Assembly (NCBI GenBank): GCA_050250855.1
Contig: JBFWNW010000001.1
Coordinates: 64,001-128,000 of the forward strand
Length of the DNA stretch: 64,000 nt
Direction: 5' to 3'
From: Candidatus Babeliales bacterium
GTDB taxonomy: Bacteria > Babelota > Babeliae > Babelales > JACPOV01
Below the pieces are notes generated by a model that worked only from the letters and a program-made list of their open reading frames with translations, searched no databases and was not told the DNA's origin. Shown one piece after another: positions 15,949 to 53,129 of the stretch. Every line of letters begins with the position of its first letter. The first letter of the stretch is position 1. Made by a program: the position numbers and the translations under genes.

Positions 15949-16170
15949 CCGTTCGTGGTGAGGGTTTTTCGAAGAAAAACGTCTCGAACCACTTGAACTC
16001 AAAATTAAAAAATTCATATTTTTTTTAAATAGATTTGTCGTTATGGTTCGACCCTTCGTCGAGCTCAGGACAGGAACGCAAACTTTAGTTTGCTCCTCAC
16101 CACGAACGGGATATAAAAAAGTGATTTCGCTCATCCTGAGTGATGTGCGTAGCGCATTGTATCGAAGGAT
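15949..16170. repeat. REP/MITE-like composite: empty CCGTTCGTGGTGAG element with nested insert plus adjacent CGCTCATCCTGAG hairpin
   Basis: CCGTTCGTGGTGAG (15949) ... CTCACCACGAACGG (16109); insert CCCTTCGTCGAGCTCAGGACAGG at 16052-16074; CGCTCATCCTGAG...TCGAAGGAT at 16128-16170. Confidence 0.85.
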
Positions 16171-17361: not shown

Positions 17362-17389
17362 TTGCATTCATTTTAAATCTCGGTATACT
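17362..17389 (+). promoter_or_regulatory. Putative sigma70 promoter of groESL
   Basis: TTGCAT-16 nt-TATACT about 105 nt upstream of groES. Confidence 0.4.
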
Positions 17390-17495
17390 GATCTTGAGTT
17401 GAATATAAGGCGAATTTGGCGACTCTTATTTTTTTAAATAGATTCATTTTTTTTCTAAGGTATTTTTAACAATTTTTATAAAGCAGGGAGGATGT

Positions 17496-17783
17496 ATGTT
17501 TGAGAAAATCAAACCATTGCATGACCGAGTTTTGGTAAAGCGCATAGAGATTGAAGGTACTACCCCTGGTGGTATCATTATCCCTGATGCAGCCAAAGAA
17601 AAAGCACAAACAGGCAAAGTTGTTGCTGTTGGTGCTGGTCGCGTAACAGCAGAAGGAAAAGTTGTTCCTATGGCAGTTAAAGCTGGTGATGTAGTCTTTT
17701 TTGGCAAATATGCAGGGACTGAAGCTGGTGATGATCATCTTATTGTTCGAGAAGAAGAACTTTTAGGTGTAGTAGAACGCTAA
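17496..17783 (+). CDS. groES: Co-chaperonin GroES
   Basis: [27 protein letters not shown]. Confidence 0.98.
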
Positions 17784-17794
17784 AAATTTATTAA

Positions 17795-19453
<1,659 letters not shown>

Positions 19454-19482
19454 GCCAACCTAAAGTTCTTTTTAAAACTATT

Positions 19483-19510
19483 AAAGGCCCCGCATTGTCG
19501 GGGCTTTTTT
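19483..19510. terminator. Intrinsic terminator after groEL
   Basis: AAAGGCCCCG-CATTGT-CGGGGCTTTTTT. Confidence 0.75.
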
Positions 19511-19940
19511 ATTTCTTGTACCCAAGTTTTTGATAATAATCTATATCATCCTGCGCACGTTTAATTAATCGCTGAGCATATTGTCTCAATTGCTGCTGTG
19601 CCGGTTTGAAATTAGGATCATTAGCAAGCTCTAAAGCGACGTTAATTTTTTCAGTATCAGAAAGATTGCTTTCATCTAAAGCACTCGTTACTTCAAGGGC
19701 AAGATAGGTAAGCGTTCCTTCATTATTTTGTGCTTTTATTTCAGCTATTTTTTTCCATACAGCGCCTTGCTTGCCACCAATAATTTTACCAGCAGAACTG
19801 GGCTGTTTTATCGCTTTATTGAGCATTTCTATTTTTTGATAATCTTTGTTTTGTTGCGGAGAAATGGGAATAATAGCATTGCTATAATGAGCTACTAATG
19901 CAGCGCATAATATGCCAGAGAAATATAATTTTTTCTTCAT
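19509..19940 (-). CDS. Secreted hypothetical protein
   Basis: MKKK signal peptide, GGAG RBS. Confidence 0.65.
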   Translation of the reverse strand: MKKKLYFSGILCAALVAHYSNAIIPISPQQNKDYQKIEMLNKAIKQPSSAGKIIGGKQGAVWKKIAEIKAQNNEGTLTYLALEVTSALDESNLSDTEKINVALELANDPNFKPAQQQLRQYAQRLIKRAQDDIDYYQKLGYKK

Positions 19941-20037
19941 ACAGTCTCCTTTTTTCTTTTATACTACTGTATGAATTTTTTAAAAAACAAGAAAAGATTT
20001 AGAGCTTATCCATAAATTCAAAAAAATGATATTTTGT

Positions 20038-20202
20038 GTTCGTACCCTTCGACCCATTCGACAAGCTCAGGGTCAGGGCGAACGGAGTGAGAAATGAGCG
20101 CAGCCTTTACTTCCCTGAGCGTTGTCCAATCTAATGATCAGGGTGAACTGAATAAAAGTACTATGAGCCGTTCGTGCTGAGCCTGTCGAAGCATTCGAAC
20201 GG
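20038..20202. repeat. REP-like inverted dimer (CCCTTCGAC..CTCAGGGCGAACGG / CCGTTCGTGCTGAG) with self-nested module
   Basis: Same architecture as 22107-22215 and 36454-36547, and the reverse complement of 45398-45556. Confidence 0.85.
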
Positions 20203-20271
20203 AATTTAAATAACGTTAAGTAATCAGTTTGTTCAGTATATAGTTTTTAAGAAAAAATCGCTATTTAAACC

Positions 20272-21771: not shown

Positions 21772-21917
21772 AGAAGTTTTTTCCTATTAACCAAGATGAA
21801 GAGATTAAATATTTTTTTAGTATAATTTTTTCCAATACAAATCACTAATATACTTTTGTTCTATATTATTTTTATATAGTATGCGGCTACTCTTTTTTTA
21901 CATGCTATTTTTTCTGT

Positions 21918-22285
21918 TATAAATTTCACGGTCCCTCTCCGGGACGGGACCAGCCCCTTTTGCTTGTACAAAAGGGCTGGACAAAAATACACCAACATGC
22001 TGTTGGATCCGCTTGCCCGCTCAAACATCAACCACTCATCCTTCGGCTTTCAGCCTTGGCTTCAGGTCGCTGATTCGCTACCGGTATGAATGTATAAAAT
22101 TATCATCGTTCGCACCCTTCGACGAGCTCAGGGCGAACGGAATAAAAAAAATACTTATCTTCTGGCCGTTCGTGCTGAGGGTTTTTCAAAGAAAAACGTC
22201 TCGAAGCATACGAACTAATTTGCCGGCCGTGTCCGCCATAGCTCGAAGAGCGACGGCTGGACATGAAGGCGCCGTGAGATTTGTA
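21918..22285. repeat. GC-rich structured composite element containing a REP dimer and a GWA/GAA-type hairpin
   Basis: Imperfect terminal inverted ends (TATAAATTTCACGGTCCCT / GAAGGCGCCGTGAGATTTGTA); REP dimer 22107-22215; hairpin 22225-22260. Confidence 0.7.
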
Positions 22286-22364
22286 TAAACAAAGAAGATT
22301 TTTTCCCTGAGAGGAATTGTGAGATTTGTCATTTAAAAAATATATTAATTATAAAAAAATAGTT

Positions 22365-23249
22365 TTACTTATACACCACTGCAGCCAATTCTTTACAAAA
22401 AGCCACCGCATCAGCTAATGATTTTTGGTGAATATTGCGCCCGATAGCAGCACCGGCGATATTTTCAATCATCATATATTCTTGCAGCTGTTTAATAAAT
22501 TTTTTTGGTGCAATAGTTTGGCCGCCAGAAAGTAATAATTTAGTATTACCTGCTGCTTGTCCTGCAACCGCAAGCCATTCCAGGCTGCTCATATCTTCTT
22601 CATCACTTGGTTCTGGTAGATTAATTTTTGCAAAATCAGCACCAAGAGCATTTGCTGCACCGGCAGCGCCGGCAATAATCATGCCGTGGCGTTCATACCC
22701 TTCTAAGCATTCACCGCGCGGGTACATCCATAAAATAGTTACCAAGCCATGTTGATGCGCTTCATATACTATTTGTGCTGCCTGGGTGAGCATTTCTGCT
22801 TCATACTGACTGCCAAGATAAACGGTGTAGCCAACGCCGCAAATGGGAAGATTTGTTTGCTGCTTGAATGCAGCAACTTGCTGAATGTTCCAGAGCTCTT
22901 TACTTAAAGGATCAGAATAATCGGTTGGAATAATATCCGTTTTTCCATTTAATTTGACGATATAATTAATATTCTTGTACTGTTTTCCATAGCGTGCAAT
23001 AAGGCCTAACTGGGTTGCCATAGCGCCAATATCAGCTTGTGAGGCGATCGAAAATAAATGATTTGGATTGCTATCAGCAGGATCTATATCAGCCCCAAAA
23101 AAATCTTTATGAAGATGCTCAATTTTTTGATCAGCGGAAAAAAGCAAGAGGTTGCCGGTGTTGCGTGTCAGTGCTGTATAATGCTTTACAAATGCATCAA
23201 TACTTTTTTCTGGTACATCAGCCGGAACAAAACAATGTTTTTCTGCCAT
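22365..23249 (-). CDS. Class I fructose-bisphosphate aldolase (DhnA/FbaB type)
   Basis: DQKIEH, GYTVYLGS, LWMYPRG, LGADFAK Schiff-base Lys, SGG, AIGRNIHQ. Confidence 0.9.
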   Translation of the reverse strand: MAEKHCFVPADVPEKSIDAFVKHYTALTRNTGNLLLFSADQKIEHLHKDFFGADIDPADSNPNHLFSIASQADIGAMATQLGLIARYGKQYKNINYIVKLNGKTDIIPTDYSDPLSKELWNIQQVAAFKQQTNLPICGVGYTVYLGSQYEAEMLTQAAQIVYEAHQHGLVTILWMYPRGECLEGYERHGMIIAGAAGAANALGADFAKINLPEPSDEEDMSSLEWLAVAGQAAGNTKLLLSGGQTIAPKKFIKQLQEYMMIENIAGAAIGRNIHQKSLADAVAFCKELAAVVYK

Positions 23250-23325
23250 AAAAAATTCCTTGTAGGTTTCGAGTTTTTTATTTCGAATCTACAAGGAACT
23301 GTATTTTTAAACAAGTATTTTGGAC

Positions 23326-23940
23326 TTATTCTTTTTGTTTATACTTCTCTAAAAGAGCTTCAATTTCTTTTAAGTTATATTTTTTTGTAAGAGAGAAAGC
23401 ATCTTTTTGCGATGCTTTTATGCTAAGGGAACCCAGACCAAAAGCTTTTGTTTCTGGATTTGCACCAGCTGCCAAAAGGTCTTTAATCGTTTGAAGATAC
23501 TTTTGCTGGTCGTTTGTTTTTGTGTTATAGAATTCTATAGCCCACATTAAGGGAGTTGCCGATCGATTACCATCAATAGTATTTATGTCGCCACCAGCTT
23601 TTTTTAGTGCTAAAAGAGCTGATAGAGAATGCCTTCCGTTAACAGAAAAATCAAAAAATAACGCATTAAGTTCTCTGTTTGATTTATTTTGTAAATAATT
23701 TTTAACAAGGCTGTCGAGTGCCAAATCACCTAAATATTTATCAGATATATTATGCGTGATAAGATGATCAATTTTTTGAGCTGCATCAAAAAAGTTTGGT
23801 GTTGTTTGTCTAATCTCCAGAAGCTTACCTACAAAGTCAAGTTGAGAAATAGCAGGTTCTTGTACTGTTTTTTCCGATGCAAGCAAAGAAGTTCCTGCTA
23901 GTAGAGTAATTATTAAGAAATTTTTTTTAATATTTTTCAT
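23326..23940 (-). CDS. Secreted ankyrin-like protein
   Basis: Signal peptide; GGDIN, TPLMWAI, LLAAGANP. Confidence 0.75.
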   Translation of the reverse strand: MKNIKKNFLIITLLAGTSLLASEKTVQEPAISQLDFVGKLLEIRQTTPNFFDAAQKIDHLITHNISDKYLGDLALDSLVKNYLQNKSNRELNALFFDFSVNGRHSLSALLALKKAGGDINTIDGNRSATPLMWAIEFYNTKTNDQQKYLQTIKDLLAAGANPETKAFGLGSLSIKASQKDAFSLTKKYNLKEIEALLEKYKQKE

Positions 23941-24083
23941 AGTATCCTTATTTTTCTTTGTTCATTAACTAGAGAGTAAAAAAGCTAAGTACAATTGGTT
24001 TAAATTGTATCTTATTTTATTTTAGTAAATATTGCGATAAAAAAGCAAGATTTTTAGTAAAAAAGCCTTATCTACAGGTATTT

Positions 24084-25721
24084 TTAGACCATTTTTTCAT
24101 GGATTACTAGGTTTTCAGCCACCTTCATAAAAAGAGGGGCGGCAACCTGGGAGGCGTAGAGATTCTTAGAGGCAGCATTTTGAATATAGGTTACAATAAC
24201 GCGTTTATAATCACCTTTTTCTATAATACCAGCAAACGTATAGGTGTTATGATCTGGTGTATACTGTCCATCAATGACCATGTTAGCAGTTCCTGTTTTG
24301 CCCATAACGCGATAACCATTGAGCGCAGCGCGCCGCGCTGTTCCTTGCGTTACTGTTTTTTCTAATATATCGCGCATGGTTTCAAGTGAGCTATATTTAT
24401 ATAGATACTCTTTCTCTTTATTCTCCTCAGGATTATGCTTCTTAATAAGTCTTGGTTCAATTAAATAACCACCATTAGCAAGTAAAGAAAATGCGCGCGC
24501 TAATTGTACTAAATTAGCAGTAATTTCATAACCAAACGATAATGAAATAATAGAAGGCTTAGACCAATTTTTTGGTGGATTGACAAAACCTGCTTGTTGG
24601 CCTGGCCAGTTGATAGGTAATTTTTGGCCAAAGCCCAAGCGGTTGTAATGATGATACAAATCTGGCCCTAAGCGGCAGGCAACGTGCGCTATGCCGATAT
24701 TATTTGATTTTTGAATAACTTCAGTAAAAGGAATAATGCCATGAGGATAAACGGTGTTAACGCGAACGCCATTAAGCATGGTAGTTTTTGTATTTTGGCA
24801 ATCAATAAGTTCATCCGGCTCTACAAGATGTTCTTCAAGTGCGGCAAGTGCGGTAAAAACTTTCATAACAGAACCCAGTTCATGAACATCGGTGAGAGCT
24901 TTATTTTTTGTATATTCTATACAGAGCTGTTCGGTATTATTAGGATCAAACAACGGATACTGAGCCATGCTCAAAATATCTCCTGTTGTAGGATCCATGA
25001 CAACAACAGCGCCTTCTTGCGCATTGAATTTTTCAACCGCTTCTTTTAAATTTTCATAGGTCAAAAATTGTAAATCAGCATCAATGGTAAGTTCAATCGG
25101 TTTTCCTTCAACCCCTTCTTGCTTGGTTGATTTGGTAAAATAAAAATGTCCTGAGCGTGCATCCTTTTCAAGCACGTAGGTGGTAGGAATACCAGCAAGA
25201 GATTCGTTATAAAGAAGTTCTATGCCGCATTGTCCATTATTATCGATGTCAGTAATGCCAACAACGTGACCCAAAGATTCATACGGATAAAAACGATTTG
25301 GTTCTTTGAGTAGTTTTATGTCAGGAATATTTGTTTGTTCAAGTAGCTGTTGCTGTTCTGGTGTTAGTTTGCGTTTTATATATAAAAAGTGTGCATCAGG
25401 ATGACTATATAAGCGCTCAAGTGCTTGCGGGAAATGCTTTTTTAAAAACTGTTCCACGCGTTCAATGTGCTCAATTTTTTTAGGGAGTATAAAAGCAGAA
25501 AGAGAATGTTTATTGAGTGCGAGTGGCTGGCCATTGCGGTCAAAAATAAGAGCACGTTCAGGGGTGCTTTTTATGGTTACATTATATTGTTGTTTGCCAA
25601 GATTAGAAAAAAAAGCACGTTGCTTTATTTGAATGGCATAAAGATTACATAAAATAAGAAAATAAAGAGCGCAGAAAAATAAAAATATAAAGGCGGTTCT
25701 AATTTTATATGCTGTTTTCAT
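24084..25721 (-). CDS. ftsI: Class B penicillin-binding protein (FtsI/PBP3)
   Basis: N-terminal TM, IFDRNG, RFYP, GSVMK (SxxK), SNN, KTGT. Confidence 0.85.
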   Translation of the reverse strand: MKTAYKIRTAFIFLFFCALYFLILCNLYAIQIKQRAFFSNLGKQQYNVTIKSTPERALIFDRNGQPLALNKHSLSAFILPKKIEHIERVEQFLKKHFPQALERLYSHPDAHFLYIKRKLTPEQQQLLEQTNIPDIKLLKEPNRFYPYESLGHVVGITDIDNNGQCGIELLYNESLAGIPTTYVLEKDARSGHFYFTKSTKQEGVEGKPIELTIDADLQFLTYENLKEAVEKFNAQEGAVVVMDPTTGDILSMAQYPLFDPNNTEQLCIEYTKNKALTDVHELGSVMKVFTALAALEEHLVEPDELIDCQNTKTTMLNGVRVNTVYPHGIIPFTEVIQKSNNIGIAHVACRLGPDLYHHYNRLGFGQKLPINWPGQQAGFVNPPKNWSKPSIISLSFGYEITANLVQLARAFSLLANGGYLIEPRLIKKHNPEENKEKEYLYKYSSLETMRDILEKTVTQGTARRAALNGYRVMGKTGTANMVIDGQYTPDHNTYTFAGIIEKGDYKRVIVTYIQNAASKNLYASQVAAPLFMKVAENLVIHEKMV

Positions 25722-25983
25722 GAGGCATCTGTTTAATTTGTGATAACGTTATTTTTTTCATGCCAAGTTCTTCTTGGGCGTACTGTTTTATAGCGGCTCT
25801 ATTATGCACCAGATACCATTGTTGCATAAGATTGTTTTTTTTTTCAAGAAGATCGTGCTTTATTTTTTCACTTTTTTGTTTTTGGTACGATAGTTCAACT
25901 AAGTAGCTTTGTTTATGAATTTGCAAAAAGATAAAGCCAATATGCAGGCTAATAAAAAGAGTAATAAAGGTATGCGCTTTCAT
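25705..25983 (-). CDS. FtsL-like cell division protein
   Basis: Single TM plus coiled coil plus A..ELGM, overlapping the ftsI start. Confidence 0.65.
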   Translation of the reverse strand: MKAHTFITLFISLHIGFIFLQIHKQSYLVELSYQKQKSEKIKHDLLEKKNNLMQQWYLVHNRAAIKQYAQEELGMKKITLSQIKQMPHENSI

Positions 25984-26042
25984 AAAATCCCTTTTTTTTG
26001 AGCATACCCTTATTAAGGTGAATTTTTAAAGAGTCTTGTAGT

Positions 26043-26546
26043 TTATTCTGTTTCCAGTTTTAATTTTTTATGCGTAAGTTTTTCTTTTTCATCTAAAAAA
26101 TCATCTAATTTTTGTTTAAAAGTATTCGTTTTTTGTAATTTCTTTTCATAATCTTTAAGGAACGATGTTTTCATACCTATTAAAAATTTATTGGTTTCAG
26201 GATCTGTATCTAATTTTTCAAGCTCATTTTTATGCAATGTTACACGAGCTTCTAGATCCGCTTGGTCTTTTGAAGCTAGGGCCCAAACATTTAGACGTAC
26301 TTCTTCATCCCACTTATTTAAATCAGGATTTTTTTTGCTTTTGGTATTTTCATAATAGATAGCGATTTTTTCAAATTTGTTTTTATTTTCTGCCCATTCA
26401 TTTTTAAGTTCTTCTGGAGAAATAACAGGAATATCTTTTTCAAATACATATTCCAAAGCTTTTTTTTTAAAGCGTACTTTACGTTTTTCCATGCAGTTCA
26501 TGAACATACATGTTGTAATGGTGATAATAAAAAATAGTGACTTCAT
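26043..26546 (-). CDS. Secreted Lys/Glu-rich hypothetical protein
   Basis: Signal peptide followed by ME-KRKVRF. Confidence 0.7.
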   Translation of the reverse strand: MKSLFFIITITTCMFMNCMEKRKVRFKKKALEYVFEKDIPVISPEELKNEWAENKNKFEKIAIYYENTKSKKNPDLNKWDEEVRLNVWALASKDQADLEARVTLHKNELEKLDTDPETNKFLIGMKTSFLKDYEKKLQKTNTFKQKLDDFLDEKEKLTHKKLKLETE

Positions 26547-26550
26547 AGGT

Positions 26551-27111
26551 TTAAAGATTTTCTGCTTTTAACTTTTTTGTTGATTGTAAATCTCTTAATG
26601 CAACCAATTCACTGCGAGCCCAGTGATCTTTAAGTTCTTCTTGGTAAGAAATACCATGTTTAATAAGCTCAAGTTTGATTTTTATTTGTTCTTGCAGATG
26701 TTTATCAATACTATCAAGAGCATCTTTATATTTTGGTGCCCCAGTATCTTGATAGTTTTCTGCCGCTATCTTTCTGAGTTCTATGATTTCTGGATTAGTA
26801 CGGTATTTTAGGTTTTCTGGCAAAGCAACTATATTGTGCAAGAGCAAGCCGAGTCCTGACTCTCTTTGAACGAAAGTAGGTTTTTTTTGTTTTTTTTCTG
26901 GTGTGAGCGGTTGTTTTTTGGGGCTCGTCCATGCAGTTTCAAGGTTTTGTTTTTTTTGATCATTATCGAGAGCTTTAATATCAGGTCTTGCCAAAGATGA
27001 AAAATTTGGTTTTTTTCTATTTTTAAGATTTTCCATGCTATTAATGAGCCCGCATGTTGAAGTTGTCAGTATTAAAATAATAAGTAATTTTTTCATAGTA
27101 AAATCTTTCAT
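26551..27111 (-). CDS. Secreted hypothetical protein
   Basis: MKKLLIILILTTSTCGLINS-ME signal; start may be 27096. Confidence 0.7.
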   Translation of the reverse strand: MKDFTMKKLLIILILTTSTCGLINSMENLKNRKKPNFSSLARPDIKALDNDQKKQNLETAWTSPKKQPLTPEKKQKKPTFVQRESGLGLLLHNIVALPENLKYRTNPEIIELRKIAAENYQDTGAPKYKDALDSIDKHLQEQIKIKLELIKHGISYQEELKDHWARSELVALRDLQSTKKLKAENL

Positions 27112-27115
27112 AGTT

Positions 27116-27453
27116 TTATAGTTTTTCTTGTTTTTGTTTTTTTATAGTTCCGAGAAATTCTAGTAATTTCCCTTTGTCTATTGCCGGTACAGATAGTTCA
27201 GATTTTGCAGGGTTATCCTTACGGTCTTCTTTTGGGTTTAGTATATCTTCTACATCTAATCCTGATAAAGTACTAGGCAGAAATCAAAATTTATTTTTTG
27301 TGGGCGTGGAGGGCATTGTGGGCCTGATTTTTGAGTGTTTGCCAAGTTTTCAAAGCTAGGGACAGGAATAGCAGGTTTTTTTATCGCAGGTTCCATACCA
27401 GTAACCAAGCCGCAGGTCAGGGTGCATGTTAAGGTGATAAGTAGCTTTTTCAT
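27116..27453 (-). pseudogene. Frameshifted secreted hypothetical protein
   Basis: Signal MKKLLITLTCTLTCGLVTG-ME similar to the neighbour; another frame continues FLPSTLSGLDVED...KQKQEKL* to 27116, just before the next gene. Confidence 0.55.
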
Positions 27454-27622
27454 AGAATATTCTCCATATTAAGCCGATATTGGTTTAATAATAGTTATAG
27501 GTAATTTTAACCTAATAATTTCAAATTGTCAATAGGGGTCTGTGGAAGTATATAGGCAAAAAAGAACCTTTTTGCTATACTAGAACTGTTTTCATGATTT
27601 TATAACCAAAAAGGTTTTTAGC

Positions 27623-29125
27623 ATGGTTTTTAAAGAAAGCTCTCCCGAAGTTCTTATTGAACATGAGCAAGAACTCTCAGATGAATCAAAAGTCCGTATT
27701 GCAAAAGTAGAAGAGATGCGCAAACAGGGTATTGAGCCCTGGCCGCCAGCACGTGCTGTTTCTCATACTTGTAAGCAGGTGCATGATGAATTTGAGCCTG
27801 ATGCGCACAAAGAGTATACGCTTGCCGGTCGTTTAATGTCTTTACGCTGGCATGGAAAAACAGCGTTTGCTGATCTGCAAGATAGAAGCGGCAGGGTGCA
27901 ACTTTATTTTAAAAAAGATGCATTAGGGGAAGAGCAATTTTCTATACTTAAAAACTTTGTTGATATTGGTGATATTGTCTGGGTGCAAGGAACTTCCTTT
28001 AAAACTAAAATGGGAGAAGTTACCCTTGAAGTAAAAACATTTGAACTCTTGAGCAAATGTATTCATCCGTTGCCAGAAAAATTTCATGGCCTGACTGATA
28101 CAGAAAAACGCTATCGCCAGCGCTATCTTGATTTGATAGTGAATCCAGACAATAAAGAAAAATTTATTCGCCGTACGCTGCTCGTGCGCGCTATGCGTAC
28201 CTTTTTGGATAATCATGGCTTTTTGGAAGTGGAAACACCGATGCTGCACCCCATTGCTGGTGGCGCTACAGCACGTCCTTTTGTAACGCATCACAATGCG
28301 TATGATTCTGATTTTTATTTACGTATTGCGCCTGAGCTTTATTTAAAACGTTTAATCGTTGGTGGTCTTGAACGCGTGTATGAAATTAATCGTAACTTCC
28401 GCAATGAAGGCGTTTCAACAAGGCATAATCCAGAATTTACGATGTGCGAATTTTATATGGCACATCATGATTATCATTTTATCATGGGCTTTGTTGAAGA
28501 AATGCTACGTGCCATGATGCTTGAAAGTTGTGGAACGTTGCAAGTACCATTTGGCGATCATACGCTTGATTTTGGCGTTAGTTTTAAACGTTTGAGTATT
28601 CGTGATTCAGTGCTTGAAATTGGTGGCTTGCAGGAAAAAGATATTCAAGAAAGTGCTCTTGATGCAACGTTAAAAAAACATAACGTAAAAGTAGCCAATA
28701 AAAAAGCATCAGCAGGCGAAAAGATATTTGCTTTATTTGAAGAGCTTGTAGAACACAAACTTATTCAACCAACCTTTATTACCGATTTTCCTATTGAAGT
28801 TTCTCCGCTTGCAAAGCGTGATTCTAAAAATCCTGCCATTGCTGCACGTTTTGAACTATTTATAGCCGGCATGGAGTTGAGCAACGGTTTTAACGAGTTG
28901 AATGATCCTTTTGACCAAGCAGAACGTTTTGAGCAACAGCTGGAAGCGCATAAAGCGGGCAATGATGAAGCGCATCAGTACGATGCAGATTATATTCATG
29001 CACTTGAATATGCTTTGTCGCCTACTGTTGGCGTGGGAATTGGTATTGATCGTTTAGTTATGCTTGCAACCAATACAACGTCCATAAAAGATGTAATTTT
29101 ATTTCCGACATTAAAAAAGAAGTAA
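27623..29125 (+). CDS. lysS: Lysyl-tRNA synthetase (class II)
   Basis: RYRQRYLDL, GGATARPF, YLRIAPELYLKRL, FRNEG, HNPEFT, GIGIDRL. Confidence 0.98.
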   Translation: MVFKESSPEVLIEHEQELSDESKVRIAKVEEMRKQGIEPWPPARAVSHTCKQVHDEFEPDAHKEYTLAGRLMSLRWHGKTAFADLQDRSGRVQLYFKKDALGEEQFSILKNFVDIGDIVWVQGTSFKTKMGEVTLEVKTFELLSKCIHPLPEKFHGLTDTEKRYRQRYLDLIVNPDNKEKFIRRTLLVRAMRTFLDNHGFLEVETPMLHPIAGGATARPFVTHHNAYDSDFYLRIAPELYLKRLIVGGLERVYEINRNFRNEGVSTRHNPEFTMCEFYMAHHDYHFIMGFVEEMLRAMMLESCGTLQVPFGDHTLDFGVSFKRLSIRDSVLEIGGLQEKDIQESALDATLKKHNVKVANKKASAGEKIFALFEELVEHKLIQPTFITDFPIEVSPLAKRDSKNPAIAARFELFIAGMELSNGFNELNDPFDQAERFEQQLEAHKAGNDEAHQYDADYIHALEYALSPTVGVGIGIDRLVMLATNTTSIKDVILFPTLKKK

Positions 29126-29129
29126 TATA

Positions 29130-29154
29130 TACTCCCGTTTACCCAACGGGAGTA
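29130..29154. terminator. Hairpin after lysS
   Basis: TACTCCCGTT-TACCC-AACGGGAGTA perfect 10-bp stem; no strong U-tract. Confidence 0.5.
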
Positions 29155-29178
29155 ACAAGTGAATGCATTGATAGAATC

Positions 29179-29602
29179 CCGTTCGTGGTGAGGAGCCCAG
29201 CGAAGTTCTTTAACAGAGCCTGGGCGTCTCGAACCATAGGGATACAAAAGAAAATAATATAATAATGCTTCCTTTTTATTTGTTTTACATTGTGCTGATA
29301 ATTCATACTACAGTGGTCATACCGATGATATTGAAAAACGTATGGCAGAGCATATTGCTGGTGGTATAAGTAAATACACATCTACTCGTTTACCTGTTAA
29401 GTTAGTTTATCTAGAAACATTTTCAACAAGAGTAGAAGCTTTAGAGGCAGAAATTAAAATAAAAAAATGGTCAAAAAAGAAAAAAGAAGCTTTAATTGCT
29501 AGAAATTGGACAATGCTCATTCAATTAGCAAAAAGAAGAAAGAGTTTTTAGCATTGTGGTTCGAGACGCAAACTAAATAAGTTTGCTCCTCACCACGAAC
29601 GG
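29179..29602. mobile_element. REP-bounded cassette carrying a GIY-YIG nuclease gene
   Basis: Left end CCGTTCGTGGTGAGGAGC...CGTCTCGAACCA (29179-29236) and inverted right end TGGTTCGAGACG...GCTCCTCACCACGAACGG (29557-29602) enclose the gene. Confidence 0.7.
29265..29551 (+). pseudogene. Small GIY-YIG nuclease (UPF0213/YhbQ-like), 5' frameshift
   Basis: Frame reads VLHCADNSYYSGHTDDIEKRMAEH..G..KYTSTRLPVKLVYLE.F..R.EAL.AE.KIKKW..KKKEALI; that frame has a stop at 29255 and the likely start ATG 29265 (MLPFY) is out of frame near 29280. Confidence 0.8.
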
Positions 29603-29677
29603 AATTTAAATAATTTTTAATAACTCGATTGATTCATTTTTAGTAAAAATCCTTAGATCGAATTTACGTTAAAATAG

Positions 29678-29764
29678 TGCATTGATAGAATCCCGTTCGT
29701 GGTGAGGAGCCCAGCGAAGTTCTTTAACGGAGCTGGGCGTCTCGAACCATAGGGATACAAAAGA
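29678..29764. repeat. About 87-bp direct repeat of 29164-29251 (left end of the GIY-YIG cassette)
   Basis: TGCATTGATAGAATCCCGTTCGTGGTGAG...CCATAGGGATACAAAAGA nearly identical in both copies. Confidence 0.9.
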
Positions 29765-29813
29765 TCGAATTTATTTTTTTACTGGTTAAAATTTAGTATA
29801 CTTTAACCTTAAT

Positions 29814-29983: not shown

Positions 29984-30055
29984 TAGGTTTGTATTTATAA
30001 AAAAATAATGTATGCAGAACAAGTGAATGCATTAAAAATTATTAGGGAGTTCTCT

Positions 30056-31024
30056 ATGAAAAAATTATTTACACTGTTTAGTCTCACAGTCATTATCCAT
30101 GGAACAAGCTTTAGTTCGGAAAAAGATAACAACAACTTTTTTGGTGTTCCTGAAGGGGCTCCTTTTAAACTAATACATGAAGCATGTTCAAAGATGCAGA
30201 TGAGAGACCTCAGCCCTGAAGAAAAAGAGGCTATGAAGAAAGCCTATACCATGGAGCTGAAAAAACGAGGCTTTGACGAATATGGCCTTACACCTTTAAC
30301 GCATGCTATCATAAAAGAAAAAGAAAAAAAGAAAATAAAAGTAGAAGAGTTGCTAGCAAATGGTGCCTCAGTCAATGCAGGAAATTTTCTAGATTTTACT
30401 CCTTTGCATTACGCTGCAGCTGAAGGTGATATAGAAATGATAAATATTTTAAGTAAGTATAAGCCAAATGTTAATGCTCAAGAAGCTAATGGCCAAACGC
30501 CATTGCATAAAGCTAAGGATGGCAAAACAGTAAAATGCCTTTTGAGTTTGGGGGCGGCTATTATTAAAGATAATGATTTGAAGACACCATTGCATCGAAA
30601 AATTCTGTGTAAAAATATGTATAACACTTTTGACGCAATAGAAGAGCTCATTGCAAGTGGCAAGGAAAATCTTGATGCTATATCAGAATTGGATAGTCCT
30701 TTGGGGATTGCTATAGGTGTAAACGACCTTGAAGTTATGAAGATGCTTATTAAGGCTGGAGCAAACGTTAATAAGAGAGGTAAAGATTTGACTCCTTTGC
30801 GTAAAGCTGTATCGCTGAAAAGAATAGCTATGGTACAATATTTACTTTCAAATGGAGCGAATGTAAATGATGGAATAGTTAAAGGAACAACTCCCCTGCA
30901 TTTGGCTGTAAAGAGCAAGAATAAAGAGCTTTGCCAATTATTATGTAATGCTGGTGCTGATACAACAATTAAAGATGAAGAGAGTCGAACTCCTTTTGAC
31001 CTTGCTCTTGAACATTGGCAATAA
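30056..31024 (+). CDS. Secreted ankyrin repeat protein (array copy 1)
   Basis: Signal peptide, SSEKD..NFFGVPEGAPFKL leader, several TPLH repeats; GGGAG RBS. Confidence 0.92.
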   Translation: MKKLFTLFSLTVIIHGTSFSSEKDNNNFFGVPEGAPFKLIHEACSKMQMRDLSPEEKEAMKKAYTMELKKRGFDEYGLTPLTHAIIKEKEKKKIKVEELLANGASVNAGNFLDFTPLHYAAAEGDIEMINILSKYKPNVNAQEANGQTPLHKAKDGKTVKCLLSLGAAIIKDNDLKTPLHRKILCKNMYNTFDAIEELIASGKENLDAISELDSPLGIAIGVNDLEVMKMLIKAGANVNKRGKDLTPLRKAVSLKRIAMVQYLLSNGANVNDGIVKGTTPLHLAVKSKNKELCQLLCNAGADTTIKDEESRTPFDLALEHWQ

Positions 31025-31086
31025 AGAATATTTATGCATCAATCAGTAGAAACAAATTAATACATTAAAAACTATGAGGAGTTTTC

Positions 31087-32073
31087 GTGAAAAAATTATT
31101 TACGCTGTTGAGTTTTGCACTCATTATCCATGGAACAAGCTTTAGTTCGGAAAAAGATAATAACAACTTTTTTGGTGTTCCTGAAGGGGCTCCTTTTAAA
31201 CTAATAGATGAAGCACGTTCAAAGATGGAGATGAGAGACCTCAGCCCTGAAGAAAAAGAGGCAATGAAGGAAGCCTATGATATGGAGCTGCAGAAGCGAG
31301 GCTTTGATAAAGAGGGTTTGACACCGTTGATACGTGCTATAAAAAAAGAAAAAAATAAAATAAAAGTAGTAGCAAATTTTCTAGCAAATGGTGCCTCAGT
31401 CAATGCAGGAGATTTTCTAGATTTTACTCCTTTGCATTATGCTGCAGCTGAAGGTGATATAGAAATGATAAATATTTTAAGTAACTATAAGCCAAATGTT
31501 AATGCTCAAGGAGCTAATGGTAAAACGCCATTGCATTGGGCTAAGGATGGCAAAACGGTACAATGTCTTTTGAGTTTGGGGGCGCTTATTCTTAAAGATA
31601 ATGGTTTTATGACACCATTGTTTAGCAAAATTAGTTTGAATGAGACTGATGCGGCAAGAGAGCTTATTTTAAGTGGAAAAGAAGATGTTAATGCTATAGC
31701 AGGCCGTCATAGCCTTTTAACGCTAGCTGTACGTTTGGGAAATGAAGTAATTGTAAGAAGGCTTATTGACGCAGGAGCCAGCGTTAATAAGGCTAATAAC
31801 CATAAAGAAACTCCTTTATTTTGTGCTGTAGATGCATTTAGATATGAAAGCGGCTCTTGTAATCTTGTAAAACTCTTACTTTTTAATGGAGCAGATGTAA
31901 ATGGTGGTATTGTTAAAGGAACAACTCCCTTGCATCTTGCTGCACAGATCAAGAACGAAAATCTTTTCCAACTACTATGTAAAGCTGGCGCTGATACAAA
32001 TATTAAAGATGAAGACAACAAAACTCCTTCTGATTACTATCCGCCAATTTTTAGTAAAAAATTCATGTATTAA
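31087..32073 (+). CDS. Secreted ankyrin repeat protein (array copy 2)
   Basis: GTG start, same leader, TPLH repeats. Confidence 0.92.
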   Translation: MKKLFTLLSFALIIHGTSFSSEKDNNNFFGVPEGAPFKLIDEARSKMEMRDLSPEEKEAMKEAYDMELQKRGFDKEGLTPLIRAIKKEKNKIKVVANFLANGASVNAGDFLDFTPLHYAAAEGDIEMINILSNYKPNVNAQGANGKTPLHWAKDGKTVQCLLSLGALILKDNGFMTPLFSKISLNETDAARELILSGKEDVNAIAGRHSLLTLAVRLGNEVIVRRLIDAGASVNKANNHKETPLFCAVDAFRYESGSCNLVKLLLFNGADVNGGIVKGTTPLHLAAQIKNENLFQLLCKAGADTNIKDEDNKTPSDYYPPIFSKKFMY

Positions 32074-32091
32074 AAACTATGAGGAGTTTTC

Positions 32092-33051
32092 GTGAAAAAA
32101 ATATTTACGCTGTTGAGTTTTGCACTCATTATCCATGGAACAAGCTTTAGTTCGGAAAAAGATAGTAAAAACTTTTTTGGTGTTCCTGAAGCGGCTCCTT
32201 TTAAGCTAACAGATGAAGCATACGAGAAGAAGCTCGAGGAAGGATGGAAAAAGATAATAAAGGAAGCTTATAATAAGAAGCCGCAAAAGCAAGGTTTTGA
32301 TAAATATGGTTATACACCCTTGATACATGCTATAAGAGTAGAAAAAAATAAAACAAAAGTAGAAAAGCTGCTAGCAGAAGGTGCTTCAGTAAATGAAAGA
32401 GATATTCGAACTTTTACTCCTTTGCATTATGCTGCGCTTGAAGGTGATATAGAAATAATAAATATTTTAATTCAATGTAAGGCAAATCTTAATGCTCAAA
32501 CAGATAATGGCCAAACGCCATTGCATTGGGCTAAGGATGGCAAAACGGTAAAATGCCTTTTGAGTTTGGGGGCGCTTATTCTTAAAGATAATAATTTGGA
32601 GACACCATTGCTTTACGAGATTGGATCGCCATTGTTTGAAGAGGATGCAACTGATGCAGCAATAGAGCTCATTAAAAGTGGCAAAGAAGATCTTAATAAC
32701 GCTAGTTTTTTAGAATGTGCTATAGAACTACAAAATTTTAAAATTATAACGAGTCTTGTTCAAGCGGGAGCTAAGGTTAATATTGTTAGTAATAGCGGTT
32801 ATACCCCTTTACATACAGCTCTACATGAATTTGTTTTTAAAAGAGGCAACTTATCTATTGTACAATATTTACTTTCAAAGGGAGCGGATGTAAATGGTGG
32901 TATTACTAGAGGAACAACTCCTTTGCATTTGGCTGTGTATAGCAAGAATAAAGAGCTTTGTAAGCTATTGTGTAAAGCTGGTGCTGATATAACCATTAAA
33001 GATGAAGAGAATCGAACTCCTTTTGACCTTGCTCTTGAACATTGGAAATAA
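32092..33051 (+). CDS. Secreted ankyrin repeat protein (array copy 3)
   Basis: GTG start, same leader, TPLH repeats. Confidence 0.92.
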   Translation: MKKIFTLLSFALIIHGTSFSSEKDSKNFFGVPEAAPFKLTDEAYEKKLEEGWKKIIKEAYNKKPQKQGFDKYGYTPLIHAIRVEKNKTKVEKLLAEGASVNERDIRTFTPLHYAALEGDIEIINILIQCKANLNAQTDNGQTPLHWAKDGKTVKCLLSLGALILKDNNLETPLLYEIGSPLFEEDATDAAIELIKSGKEDLNNASFLECAIELQNFKIITSLVQAGAKVNIVSNSGYTPLHTALHEFVFKRGNLSIVQYLLSKGADVNGGITRGTTPLHLAVYSKNKELCKLLCKAGADITIKDEENRTPFDLALEHWK

Positions 33052-33116
33052 AAAAATAATGTATATACGAATCAGTAGTAAAAAATGAATGCATTAAAAA
33101 TTATTAGGGAGTTCTC

Positions 33117-34070
33117 GTGAAAAAAATGTTTACACTGTTGAGTTTTGCACTCATTATCCATGGAACAAGCTTTAGTTCGGAAAAAGATAGTAAAAACTTT
33201 TTTGGTGTTCCTGAAGGGGCTCCTTTTAAGCTAATATCTGAAGCATACGGGGAGAAGCTCGAGAAAGCGTTCAGTCCTGAAGAACGAGAGATAATAGATG
33301 AAGCTTATAATAAGGAGCTGCAAAAACGAGGTTTTGACGAATATGGTCTTACACCTTTAATGTATGCTATCAGAAAAGAAAAAAAGAAAATAAAAGTAGA
33401 AGAGTTGCTTGCAGAGGGTGCTTCAGTAAATGAAAGAGATATTCGAACTTTTACTCCTTTGCATCATGCTGCGATTGAAGGTGATACAGAAATAATAAAT
33501 ATTTTAATTCAATGTAAGGCAAATCTTAATGCTCAAACAGATGATGGCCAAACGCCATTGCATAAAGCTAAGGATGGCAAAACGGTAAAACATTTTTTGA
33601 GCTTGGGGGCGCTTATTCTTAAAGATAACAGTTGTATGACACCATTGCATCGAAAAATTCAGTCTACAAATATTGACGCAGCAAAAGAATTAATTTTAAG
33701 TGGCAAAGAAGATCTTGATGCTATTTCAGAATTTGGTAGCCCTTTGGAGCTGGCTATGAGTCAAGACAGCTTTGAAATTATGAAAATACTTATTCAGGCT
33801 GGAGCTAATGTTAATAAGTATAATCAATTTGGTACTCCTTTGCGGAGAGCTGTATTGCTGAGAAGTAGATTAACTATTGTGCAATATTTACTTTCACAAG
33901 GAGCAGATGTAAATGGGTGTATGGTTAGAGGATCAACTCCTTTGCATTTGGCTGTGTATTTAAAGAATAAAGAGCTTTGTGAACTATTATGTAAAGCTGG
34001 TGCTGATGTAACCATTAAAGATGAAGAGAATAGAACTCCTTTTGATCTTTTTCTTGAACATTGGCAATAA
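33117..34070 (+). CDS. Secreted ankyrin repeat protein (array copy 4)
   Basis: GTG start, same leader, TPLH repeats. Confidence 0.92.
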   Translation: MKKMFTLLSFALIIHGTSFSSEKDSKNFFGVPEGAPFKLISEAYGEKLEKAFSPEEREIIDEAYNKELQKRGFDEYGLTPLMYAIRKEKKKIKVEELLAEGASVNERDIRTFTPLHHAAIEGDTEIINILIQCKANLNAQTDDGQTPLHKAKDGKTVKHFLSLGALILKDNSCMTPLHRKIQSTNIDAAKELILSGKEDLDAISEFGSPLELAMSQDSFEIMKILIQAGANVNKYNQFGTPLRRAVLLRSRLTIVQYLLSQGADVNGCMVRGSTPLHLAVYLKNKELCELLCKAGADVTIKDEENRTPFDLFLEHWQ

Positions 34071-34079
34071 AAACAACGT

Positions 34080-34679
34080 ATGATGCACCAATCAGTAGAA
34101 TATGCGCAGTACAAAGCGCAACGAATAAAAGAGTTAATCCCTGAACTAAATCGGCAGGGGGTGACTATTCTTGATATTGGTTGCGCTGATGGCACCATGA
34201 CATTTTACTTACAAGAGCTTTTTTTTGAAAGTAAGGTCGTTGGTGTGGATCAAGATTTAGAAAAGCTTGCGCAAGCACAAAAAAAATTTCCTGCCATTAC
34301 GTTTCAAACGACTGATACAGTTTTAAAAAAAAGTTGGGATGCAATAATTATTGCTGATGTTCTGCATCACGTGCCATGCAAAGAACGTGCAAACGTAGTT
34401 CAGCAGTTTATGAGCTTAGTAAAACCGGGTGGTTTTTGTATAGTGCTCGAAATAAATCCCTGGCATTACGCTTCACGCCATGAATTTTATAACAATCCTG
34501 AAGAAAAAAATGCACAGATGCTTTCGCCATTTCAAGCATGGCGTTTAGTACGTAGGTATGGATCTTTTAGTTTTTATAGTTTTTCATTACCGTGGCCGCT
34601 GCATGGAGTAGAAACTTTTTTGTGCAAGGTGCCACTTGGCTCTTTGTATGTATTTAGAATAAAAAAGGGCGCCGATTAA
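34080..34679 (+). CDS. Class I SAM-dependent methyltransferase
   Basis: ILDIGCADG, GVD, VLHHV, KPGG. Confidence 0.85.
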   Translation: MMHQSVEYAQYKAQRIKELIPELNRQGVTILDIGCADGTMTFYLQELFFESKVVGVDQDLEKLAQAQKKFPAITFQTTDTVLKKSWDAIIIADVLHHVPCKERANVVQQFMSLVKPGGFCIVLEINPWHYASRHEFYNNPEEKNAQMLSPFQAWRLVRRYGSFSFYSFSLPWPLHGVETFLCKVPLGSLYVFRIKKGAD

Positions 34680-34701: not shown

Positions 34702-35121
34702 TTACTCTAAAAGTTTTTCTAACTTTTCACTTTCCGTGTTTTGTGTACTTATAGCTGCAGCAGCGCTTGCAGTATCTTGTGCTTTAACAGCGCGTGGAAT
34801 TCTGCGAGGTTTTTCTATAACCTGTTCATAAACAACAGGTTGTTGCTGTTCAACGACTACCGGTTGGTAATAACCGTCATAATAGCCGTTACCGACACCA
34901 AAGCCTAAGCCTGTGCCAAAACCAACACCAAAGCCCACACCAGGACCCCACCAGCCGCCACGTCTACCCCAGCCGCCGCCGCCCCAGCCGCCACGGCCAC
35001 GACCGCCGCCGCCAAAACCTCGGCCGCCGCCACCGCCTCGACCACCACGAGCTTCAAGCTCCAGGGTTTGTAAACCTATAAAACCTATAAATATGAGAGC
35101 AATTAATTTTTTTAACTTCAT
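34702..35121 (-). CDS. Secreted glycine-rich (RGG/GGW) low-complexity protein
   Basis: MKLKK signal ending LEA, then RGGRGGGGGRGF...; GAGG RBS. Confidence 0.7.
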   Translation of the reverse strand: MKLKKLIALIFIGFIGLQTLELEARGGRGGGGGRGFGGGGRGRGGWGGGGWGRRGGWWGPGVGFGVGFGTGLGFGVGNGYYDGYYQPVVVEQQQPVVYEQVIEKPRRIPRAVKAQDTASAAAAISTQNTESEKLEKLLE

Positions 35122-36453: not shown

Positions 36454-36547
36454 CCATTCGCACCCTTCGACAAGCTCAGGGCGAACGGAATAAAAAAATA
36501 GCTAGATTATGGCCGTTCGTGCTGAGCTCGTCGAAGCATTCGAACGG
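36454..36547. repeat. REP-like inverted dimer
   Basis: CCCTTCGACAAGCTCAGGGCGAACGG ... CCGTTCGTGCTGAGCTCGTCGAAGCATTCGAACGG. Confidence 0.9.
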
Positions 36548-39274: not shown

Positions 39275-39464
39275 TAACGTAATCCGATCTAAGTTCAGTA
39301 TATTTTAAATTCTATATCTCGTTCGTGGTGAGGAGTCCGGCGTAGTTTAACGAAGCCTGGACATCTCGAACCATTCGAACTCAAATTTAAAAATTATATA
39401 TTTTTTAGGATTCCATTATGGTTCGAGACGCAAACTAAATAAGTTTGCTCCTCACCACGAACGG
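39275..39464. repeat. Empty (non-autonomous) copy of the GIY-YIG cassette
   Basis: Right end 39419-39464 identical to 29557-29602; left end 39320-39373; outer motif TAACGTAATCCGATCTAAG at 39275. Confidence 0.9.
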
Positions 39465-39570
39465 AATTTAAATATTCTTAATAATCGATTGATTCATTGG
39501 TTTATTGCTATAAAAATAGTATACGCATGCAGGTAAAATAGAAGTCAAGAAAATCAGGCAGTAAATTCTT

Positions 39571-45397: not shown

Positions 45398-45556
45398 CGT
45401 TCGAATGCTTCGACAGGCTCAGCACGAACGGTTTAATATAAGCACGTATGTACTTTCCAGACTTTCGCACAAATGTTATGTCGGCCATGTAGGATTAAAC
45501 GCTGCGCCGCTCATTTCTCACTCCGTTCGCCCTGAGCTCGTCGAAGGGTGCGAACG
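45398..45556. repeat. REP-like inverted dimer (reverse orientation of 20038-20202)
   Basis: CGTTCGAATGCTTCGACAGGCTCAGCACGAACGG ... GCTCATTTCTCACTCCGTTCGCCCTGAGCTCGTCGAAGGG. Confidence 0.9.
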
Positions 45557-49593: not shown

Positions 49594-49811
49594 ATCCTTC
49601 CCAGGCTTCGCATAAAGCTTCGCCGGGCAGGCTGATACATTTTTCTTTTCGGAAAAACACTCCCTTCGATAAATTCAGGACAGGCAGGATGAGCGCAATA
49701 GTTAAAAAGCGCTCGTGTCCCTCGATGCACCAAGCAAAGCTTGGCACTCGGGATGATCGGGAGAGAGTTGATTAGCCTGTCCGCCGAAGTCTTGACGAAG
49801 GCTGGAAACCA
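49594..49811. repeat. Nested palindromic repeat cluster
   Basis: ATCCTT[insert 49600-49632]..GATACA...CACT[insert 49662-49685]AGGATGAGCG; 49710-49811 is an inverted near-copy of 52960-53061. Confidence 0.85.
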
Positions 49812-52869: not shown

Positions 52870-53129
52870 CCGTTCGTGGTGAGGGTTTTTCGAAGAAAAA
52901 TGTCTCGAACCATTCGAACTCAAAATTTAAAAATTTATATATTTTTTTAGGATTCCGTATGGTTTCCAGCCTTCGTCAAGACTTCGGCGGACAGGCCAAT
53001 TAACTCCCCCCGATCACCCCGAGTGCCGAGCTCTGCTCGGTGTATCGAGGGGCACGAACGGAATTAAAATAATTCTTAATAATTGATTGGTTTATGGTTA
53101 TTAAAAATCCTTAGATCGAGTTTACGTTA
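52870..53129. repeat. Empty cassette copy with replaced right-arm interior and outer tail motif
   Basis: CCGTTCGTGGTGAG at 52870, CACGAACGG ending 53061, tail TAAAAATCCTTAGATCGAGTTTACGTTA matching 29644-29671. Confidence 0.85.

Follow-up and report, generated by a model that had tools for sequence, protein, structure and literature searches.

Repeats of the REP (repetitive extragenic palindromic) class are reportedly organized into REPtrons and REPINs, in which RAYT enzymes, transposases of the HUH Y1 type, are said to be the partners of the repeats; reports of these systems are attributed to Nunvar in 2010, to Bertels and Rainey in 2011, and to Ton-Hoang in 2012. Palindromic repeats without a RAYT long had no partner enzyme, and work on the Ssn nucleases (2025) gave one to the CGTC-tagged class. 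This study used comparative sequence analysis for examining a locus that presents a second pairing, built with the same logic from other parts: a small GIY-YIG nuclease gene enclosed by tagged hairpin repeats in a 64,000-nucleotide (nt) stretch of contig JBFWNW010000001.1, hereafter the window. The genome is a 1.22-Mb assembly (36% G+C, 11 contigs, 95% complete, 89% coding) of the Babeliales (Dependentiae/TM6). Its lysyl-tRNA synthetase is 87% identical to that of the closest relative with a name, a Candidatus Babeliales genome.

REPs that carry a CGTC tag and lack a dedicated transposase were described by Di Nocera, De Gregorio and Rocco (2013; PMC3733652), and these tagged palindromes are the DNA side of the later NTS and SRM repeats. 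The units in our genome start with CCGTTCG and not with CGTC, and the motifs CTGAG and CGAAGG are absent from the main text of that article. The protein side was described by Chenal et al. (2025; Nat Commun 16:2388; PMC11893778). In that article, SsnA is a 94-amino-acid (aa), single-domain GIY-YIG protein that cleaves only single-stranded DNA (ssDNA), next to an NTS hairpin and on one strand only. An SRM repeat lies near 71% of the SsnA homologs and on both sides of 42%, and the authors likened the NTS-ssnA-NTS layout to an insertion sequence (IS) and to RAYT/REP. SsnA acts in Neisseria transformation, and "NTS-gene-NTS" arrangements occur around host genes. Homologs were defined by E < 1e-10 and at least 75% coverage against N. 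meningitidis SsnA, with cd10448 (GIY-YIG_unchar_3) as the top hit in the Conserved Domain Database (CDD); Supplementary Data 4 gives Babela massiliensis with no ssnA homolog. The first-pass annotation of the window, which proposed that a GIY-YIG enzyme replaces the RAYT, could not tell whether such an association had been described; for the sister family, this article had done so.

We read the window locus, with a probability of about 70%, as a decayed cassette in which a mini GIY-YIG gene stands between a hairpin and an inverted hairpin, and whose protein clade (approximately 90-100 residues) is related to but distinct from SsnA and is paired with a tagged hairpin that has a G.A core. The clade of the window nuclease and its intact paralog is labeled type A here. 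The hairpin unit is directional, its tag lying at the 5' end, and its two orientations are written "+" and "-". As had been claimed from the letters alone, a GIY-YIG gene lies between inverted ends, with a "+" unit upstream and a "-" unit downstream. The cassette is positioned downstream of lysS and comprises the following features, to which a second copy of its left end is added.

29258..29551, plus strand: GIY-YIG nuclease gene of type A, frameshifted (Pfam PF01541, E = 2.4e-16; open reading frame (ORF) table)
29163..29253, plus strand: left-end block with a CCGTTCG-tagged unit, whose tag runs from 29179 and whose core at 29186-29236 has a TGG/CCA stem and the inner sub-hairpin GCCCAG..CTGGGC (DNA fold -10 kcal/mol, z -1.65)
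29552..29620, minus strand: right-end unit (core 29557-29595, tag to 29602) with a conserved outer extension of about 20 nt (repeat families D18 and D19; DNA fold -11.4 kcal/mol, z -5.1)
29678..29765, plus strand: left-end block repeated, with the core of its unit at 29700-29749 and with 1 substitution and 1 indel (repeat comparison)

The window gene is a frameshifted, decayed copy (a pseudogene), because the frame encoding the domain has no start codon where it opens, at 29258, and the sole ATG (29265) lies in a different frame, where it begins an ORF of 34 codons. A net loss of 1 nt near the T-runs at 29268-29291 fits as the cause. The window frame (97 aa) was 58% identical to the intact paralog (91 aa); the Pfam GIY-YIG domain was the only domain found in both, and NCBIfam held no family for either small protein. 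Two public runs, both of one study and possibly of the source sample, gave contigs that spanned 29222-29586 with no indel within the gene, so the frameshift is not peculiar to this assembly; the single indel listed in these contigs, at 29219, falls within the left hairpin. One contig from another study (run X3; approximately 92% identical, depth 2.7), which covers window positions 29276-29392 and has a loose end before 29276, carried an in-frame ATG before the same domain, a weak hint that intact relatives exist. The right-end hairpin (29552-29620) reached a summed contig depth of 617 against a baseline of 17.6. The left-end copy at 29678-29765 recurs as a 91-nt block that includes the flanks; it may have arisen by partial tandem duplication or be the scar of a recombination event.

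The hairpin unit consists of the tag CCGTTCG, a stem xyz-T, GA, G, and a loop CYYGT or an inserted sub-hairpin, followed by C, GA, and A-x'y'z'. The general consensus is CCG(T/C)TC(G/A) for the tag and CYTGT for the loop, the stem could form tandem G.A pairs, and in our own genome the 3' arm is followed by NN-CGAACG(G), which pairs back to the tag. With at most one mismatch, CCGTTCGTGSTGAG occurred 12 times in the window and never in 100 shuffles, the sites including 29179(+), 29589(-), 15949(+)/16096(-), 39319(+)/39451(-), and 52870(+). The pattern CGTTCGNNNTGAG occurred 105 times genome-wide (TGC 40, TGG 34, CCC 27, TAC 3, TCC 1). In 100 of these 105 sites, the reverse complement of the same triplet followed after CGAA within 85 nt, whereas the complement of another family did so in only 7; the stem triplets therefore co-vary.

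A structural scan of the genome yielded 222 cores, compared with 63-91 in five shuffles, and 153 of the 222 belonged to seven stem types in 89 clusters. The midpoints of 133 of the 153 units lay outside crude ORFs. The remaining 20 were considered as in-frame insertions into genes, and this was set aside: all lie within 170 nt of an ORF end and are read as units reached by over-extended ORFs. Folded as ssDNA, single units gave -6.8 to -11.4 kcal/mol. A hammerhead-like reading of CTGAG..GAA was rejected by eye, the core not fitting CUGANGA...GAAA. The 89 clusters compare with approximately 1065 intergenic gaps, and gaps between convergent genes were about twofold enriched (26 of the 89 clusters vs 165 of the 1065 gaps).

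To determine which genes are enclosed by inverted units, as the first-pass annotation had proposed, we compared the unit positions with the gene positions. PF01541 matched three places in the genome: the window copy, the 91-aa paralog, which is intact and lies on contig 2, and an open frame of 445 aa. At the paralog, the "+" unit ends 5 nt before the ATG and the "-" unit lies 14 nt past the stop. The results revealed that the two small GIY-YIG genes are the tightest "+ gene -" enclosures of the genome (gaps of 320 and 307 nt) and that only four to five other single genes are enclosed in this way; finding both small genes among the 6 enclosed of approximately 1078 genes had a hypergeometric P of about 3e-5. 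Across the whole genome, the Y1 transposase profile PF01797 gave no hit at E <= 1, in agreement with the earlier remark that no RAYT was visible. The 445-aa open frame (contig 2, 110654-111990; L003), which we take to encode a short UvrC-like protein, has a TGC-type hairpin just past its 3' end, and versions of 430-445 aa are present in relatives.

We then compared 41 Babeliales genomes, of which 16 with at least 15 matches to two fixed patterns were classed as hairpin-rich and the other 25 as hairpin-poor. The intact paralog, used as the query, had matches in 23 of the 41 genomes; a number of these were multi-copy, and a number lay at contig ends. The presence of type A in each genome is the author's reading of this match table. 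Type A was present in 10 of 16 hairpin-rich and 5 of 25 hairpin-poor genomes (odds ratio 6.7, Fisher P 0.009, with related genomes that are not independent), whereas Y1 transposases were present in 6 of 16 and 9 of 25, respectively (Fisher P 1.0), so that repeat abundance does not track a RAYT. A flanking inverted-repeat score of at least 15 was obtained at 11 of 27 Babeliales loci outside our own genome and at 9 of 20 type A loci; shifted controls scored at most 12, except one at 19. These findings show that the association of gene and hairpin is real, conserved, and independent of RAYTs.

By sequence and flanks, type A proteins (..YYTGHTDNIEKR..KIKxWSRxKKEALI..) in the Babeliales are flanked by TGAG..CGAA hairpins, type B (..NGTLYIGVT..KxWNRxWKxxLIExxNPxWxDL) has CGTC-tagged hairpin flanks, and type C (..YLKSGSGRAF) adjoins tRNA genes and has another repeat. 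Three mini GIY-YIG types, each with its own repeat, thus seem to exist in the Babeliales. The window itself holds, at 22225-22275, a further hairpin repeat (..CTGTCCGCC..GGCGGAC..-like) that in relatives (L260, L264, L265, L106) flanks the third type beside tRNA genes.

To determine how far the pairing extends, we searched with a profile of 18 type A proteins. Relatives were encoded in 553 of 603 candidate stretches, and the 80 best loci were taken for flank analysis; these came from Pseudomonadota (alpha, beta, gamma), Nitrospirota, Thermodesulfobacteriota, Chloroflexota, Campylobacterota, Cyanobacteriota, Ignavibacteriota, Cloacimonadota, Acidobacteriota, Binatota, and Babeliales. A locus was counted as bracketed when the 200 nt upstream of the gene contained a "+" unit and the 230 nt downstream of it a "-" unit. 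Among these 80 best loci, from at least 10 phyla, 45 were bracketed, 30 had a partial arrangement, and 5 had none. In control zones farther out, a unit was present in 12 of 80 loci per side, so that about 2 bracketed loci would be expected. Homologous genes are flanked by the repeats well beyond this genome, and the association is conserved between phyla.

The tag, which was not used for finding the units, was conserved in the 118 gene-flanking units (C107 C105 G110 T82/C25 T107 C100 G82/A29), and the 3' flank was variable. Of 74 short loops, 52 were CTTGT or CCTGT, and the stem 4-mer was unequal between the two sides of the gene in 20 of the 45 bracketed loci. It is probably the tag and the G.A core that the protein recognizes, with a structural role for the triplet stem. 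In one gammaproteobacterial genome (G043), types A and B and a YhbQ-like gene stand side by side, A being flanked by CCGTTCGCCCTGAG..GTCGAAGGG and B by NTS. In a quick tree (100 columns, SH-aLRT support only), the type A proteins did not follow the species tree.

The resemblance to Ssn is close in layout: both systems have a single-domain GIY-YIG protein of about 90-100 residues, inverted hairpin brackets, a dispersed directional hairpin with a conserved 5' tag, and a patchy cross-phylum distribution enriched in symbionts. Unlike the Ssn hairpin (CGTC tag..CYRG), the type A hairpin has a CCGTTCG tag and a TGAG..CGAA core, and the two types can coexist in one genome (G043), each with its own hairpin. 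As proxies for SsnA, we used 94-aa proteins whose NTS/SRM-flanked genes were found with an NTS-flanked gammaproteobacterial query in 9 of 26 Neisseria genomes. Against these proxies, our own proteins gave E values of 1e-4 to 3e-4 (35-37 bits, 30% identity, 72-89% coverage), which lie outside the E range set for SsnA homologs, whereas Babeliales type B matched these SsnA-type Neisseria proteins at 1e-34. With a gammaproteobacterial type A protein, our own proteins matched at 1e-28. In the quick tree, the SsnA-type clade was set off by a long branch (SH-aLRT 97), type C had a support of 98, the YhbQ-like group lay outside types A, B and C at 91, and type A formed the backbone. The published SRM pattern had no site in our whole genome (mean 0.9 in 20 shuffles) and hit 2 of the 80 cross-phylum type A loci. 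Because neither the E value nor the SRM pattern agrees, the system of the window is, as judged from these comparisons, a sister variant of Ssn and not a member under the operational definitions of the article; type A would be nominally inside the Ssn family (Fig. 5b of PMC11893778) if CDD files it under cd10448. The strings GTCGAAGG and CCCTGAG are absent from the 12 of 14 supplementary files of that article that were searched, and file 13 is a strain table.

Several smaller observations bear on how NTS and GIY-YIG genes are distributed. In N. lactamica and N. mucosa, the matches to PF01541, apart from two of about 620-640 aa that we take for UvrC, were limited to a YhbQ-like gene of 91 aa that has no NTS flanks and an open frame of 388 aa; SsnA-type genes emerged only with the NTS-flanked protein as query. 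A GIY-YIG gene stood beside NTS in 1 of 129 NTS-pattern loci (L204), and at another locus (L121) two inverted NTS copies 443 nt apart had no GIY-YIG gene between them. No other paper linking GIY-YIG with such palindromic repeats was found in the literature searched; the layout and the idea have been in print for Ssn since 2025, and this protein clade and its hairpin are apparently undescribed in that literature.

Other known systems share fewer features with the locus. Like a REPtron, it has a small nuclease gene between inverted, dispersed extragenic palindromes, inverted doublets, and several stem variants per genome; unlike a REPtron, the genome has no Y1/HUH gene, the enzyme has another fold and chemistry, and the units start with CCGTTCG instead of the GTAG tag of REPs. 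The UPF0213/YhbQ proteins are similar in size to type A and include the best solved-structure matches (PDB 1zg2, E 5e-15; 1ywl, E 8e-13), and E. coli YhbQ matched our own proteins with 49-56 bits (1e-9 to 5e-12); the inspected YhbQ-like genes (N. lactamica and G043 L251), however, had no flanking hairpins. In contrast to GIY-YIG homing endonucleases, the 91-97 residues hold no second (DNA-binding) domain, and the setting is chromosomal and intergenic. Compared with a pair of a miniature inverted-repeat transposable element and an IS, inverted ends are present; the encoded protein is a nuclease and not a known transposase.

Pairs of units within 300 nt fall into two arrangements. The 44 "- +" pairs are formed by TGC and CCC units with the tag ends facing each other, whereas the 14 "+ -" pairs are formed by TGG units with the tags outward and an AT-rich spacer between them. 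In the gene-bearing copy, the arrangement is that of the TGG units, and the gene stands where the spacer would be. Consecutive doublets also place 1-6 ordinary genes between "+" and "-" units. The elements of the window beyond the cassette are listed below.

15949..16169, no strand: gene-less TGG-type element with a "+" unit at 15956-15991 and a "-" unit at 16044-16102 with a nested short unit, plus a TCC-type unit at 16134-16169 (motif and repeat scan)
39320..39464, no strand: gene-less TGG-type element with an AT-rich spacer where the gene would be, left-end and right-end subtypes as in the gene-bearing copy (repeat and fold)
52870..53061, no strand: composite element whose left end is canonical and whose right-end hairpin is broken up by other repeat units, including a "+" CCCC-type unit at 53017-53052 (motif and repeat scan)
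20045..20193, no strand: CCC(-)/TGC(+) doublet (repeat and unit scan)
22115..22208, no strand: CCC(-)/TGC(+) doublet; no hairpin unit occurs at the orthologous intergenic site of G001, a genome of the same genus (unit scan)
36463..36538, no strand: CCC(-)/TGC(+) doublet in which the tag (5') ends point toward one another (unit folds -9.6 and -6.8 kcal/mol)
45406..45548, no strand: TGC(-)/CCC(+) doublet (motif, repeat, and unit scan)
49718..49753, minus strand: single unit, TCCC (CGAG/TCGAG) variant (unit scan)

The first-pass annotation had named three gene-less copies with the same ends as the cassette. Those at 15949-16109 and 39320-39464 held up, and the one at 52870-53061 is present with a disrupted right end: only the outermost CACGAACGG and the outer extension are left, and two additional repeat types interrupt this end at 52960-53052. 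The element at 39320-39464 shares the end subtypes of the cassette, whereas the left ends at 15949 and 52870 have only the outer tag and stem in common with the gene-bearing copy, the inner sub-hairpin being different. Over 66 nt, the right end of the cassette is 95% identical to 39414-39479 (family D18), including an unbroken identical run of more than 46 bases, which bears out the identity over 46 base pairs noted before. Folded as a 149-nt sequence, the whole gene-less element at 39320-39464 gave -40.7 kcal/mol (z -8.95). At 16044-16102, a short TCC-type unit is nested in the 3' arm of the TGG right-end hairpin, and the same nested form occurs on contig 3. The sister family that had been placed at 20038, 22107, 36454, and 45398 corresponds to the four doublets.

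We next examined the turnover of the units in the same-genus genome G001. A syntenic 19.9-kb contig of G001 aligns to window positions 16751-29132 at 67-82% identity and holds no unit, whereas the window has two doublets and the cassette in this stretch. The two genes around 22115-22208 are approximately 580 nt apart in the window and lie nearly side by side in G001. TGG right-end copies elsewhere in G001 (contigs C22, C21, C10, C5, and C13) are 92-95% identical to those of our genome, compared with 67-82% for the orthologous genes. Repeats that are better conserved than coding DNA and differ in position fit mobility or strong constraint. The G001 comparison shows turnover and not mechanism.

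By analogy with SsnA, a type A protein would bind the folded hairpin in one strand of ssDNA, read the tag, and cut nearby, and the dispersed hairpins would be its cognate sites. Cutting combined with host replication or repair could then spread or maintain gene-less copies, and the TGG-type elements could be deletion derivatives of the gene-bearing cassette; we offer this extension tentatively and lean somewhat against it. The first-pass annotation went further and proposed an autonomous/non-autonomous pair in which the GIY-YIG enzyme replaces the RAYT. The association that it proposed is real and conserved; for movement of the repeats by the nuclease no evidence was obtained, and the window gene is frameshifted. 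Mobilization by the nuclease is plausible, with the odds nevertheless on the other side.

A number of observations weigh against the reading of the locus as a decayed cassette of a nuclease with its cognate hairpins. The window copy is a pseudogene, yet its TGG family counts about 40 units. The first Tyr of the GIY motif, which is nearly invariant, is Phe in the alignment of the window copy and in the run X3 relative; the protein might be weakened as an enzyme or able only to bind. For the type A clade, binding, the choice of strand, and the cleavage site are inferred from analogy only, and single-unit folds are modestly better than shuffles (z -1.5 to -5.1). The commonest arrangement, the 44 "- +" doublets, is opposite in orientation to the cassette, so the doublets are not simple deletion derivatives of it. 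The co-occurrence proposed by the first-pass annotation holds as a tendency and breaks down in individual genomes: type A was not found in 6 of the 16 hairpin-rich relatives, G005 and G017 being hairpin-rich with no small GIY-YIG gene found, G006 and G025 having only type C, G019 having types B and C, and G030 yielding no type A with the intact-paralog protein as query, the family itself not having been searched there. Conversely, five Babeliales relatives carry a type A gene with few hairpins. The empty sites that had been suggested as a check were found as orthologous G001 intergenic sites without a unit; no precise empty site was found, the G001 intergenic DNA not aligning and the genes being 67-82% identical. 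Inverted ends are present, and no target-site duplication was seen in the inspected flanks, for which no formal test was made.

How the repeats come to surround the gene can be explained in other ways. A RAYT-like process, in which the GIY-YIG nuclease excises and inserts hairpin elements and the gene cassette is the autonomous partner of the gene-less copies, would account for the common ends and orientation of the cassette and the TGG elements, for units nested inside other units, and for empty orthologous sites in G001 with near-identical copies elsewhere in that genome. Type A genes that are multi-copy and often at contig ends in several 1-Mb relatives, their discordance with the species tree in the quick tree, and a Y1 transposase that is absent here and does not track hairpin abundance point in the same direction. 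GIY-YIG enzymes, however, are hydrolytic nucleases with no covalent intermediate, and strand-transfer chemistry is not known among them; insertion would need host functions. Type A was also not found in 6 of the 16 hairpin-rich genomes, the copy in the window is broken, neither target-site duplications nor excision footprints were seen, and the G001 comparison speaks for turnover only. We consider such a process unlikely. A homing-type parasite is still less probable, a long shot: here the hairpins would spread otherwise, and the gene would invade them with the hairpin as target and sit in the spacer. Its attraction is that the gene occupies the exact position of the AT-rich spacer of TGG elements, that hairpin-rich genomes without the gene exist, and that the left-end duplicate at 29678-29765 could be a recombination scar; yet a bare catalytic domain of 91-97 residues has no DNA-binding module of homing endonucleases, genes from at least 10 phyla are flanked by one and the same tag, in keeping with a transfer of gene and hairpin together, and no other candidate mobilizing enzyme tracks the hairpins.

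The repeats may instead be kept because they serve the host, the nuclease having an Ssn-like role in ssDNA recombination, repair, or DNA uptake, with the bracketing of the gene being regulatory or the relic of a domesticated element. For SsnA, a role of this kind is in print (PMC11893778), and so are NTS-gene-NTS layouts around genes of the host. The 1-6 ordinary genes held between the "+" and "-" units of consecutive doublets and the conservation of tag and core across phyla agree with it, but even between congeners and closely related families the gene has a patchy distribution, it is a pseudogene in the window, and multi-copy genes at contig ends look selfish. Natural competence is not known in the obligate intracellular Babeliales, which also counts against a host-serving role; we rate it as rather unlikely. 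Coincidence, namely ordinary intergenic palindromes or terminators around a small gene, could appeal to the abundance of hairpins in intergenic DNA and to their enrichment between convergent genes. It is already contradicted by the enclosure of both small GIY-YIG genes (P of about 3e-5), by the 45 of 80 cross-phylum homologs bracketed in the same way against about 2 expected, and by the conserved tag.

Tag and core have been kept from Dependentiae to Proteobacteria, Chloroflexota, Nitrospirota, and other phyla in a pairing that the published search definitions miss. If biochemistry bears out the reading of a nuclease with a clade-specific hairpin, the set of natural site-specific ssDNA nucleases would be wider, the reduced genomes of symbionts would have an explanation for a large class of "orphan" repeats, and 91 residues with a 33-nt hairpin would offer a tractable system for studying repeat spread. 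In its boldest form, type A would be a second pan-bacterial mini GIY-YIG family outside the Ssn search definitions with a near-universal CCGTTCG-tag/G.A-core element, would spread repeats with host repair as a non-HUH counterpart of RAYT/REP, and would represent a new ssDNA-cutting specificity; this version is doubtful. For genome annotation, the units account for many assembly breaks and many intergenic insertions.

The surroundings of the cassette showed further features. At gathering scores, Rfam identified only three tRNAs in the whole window and no family on the repeats; the three tRNA genes form a cluster on the minus strand at 59115-59622. Low-complexity tandem repeats lie within coding DNA at 38801-39084 and 34925-35029, with periods of 21-60 nt rich in CTC/TTG and a CCGCC repeat of the proline/glycine type. 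Directly downstream of the cassette, window positions 30008-34100 hold four tandem paralogs of about 1 kb that encode ankyrin-repeat proteins with a signal-peptide-like start (repeat families D1-D4 and D7-D9).

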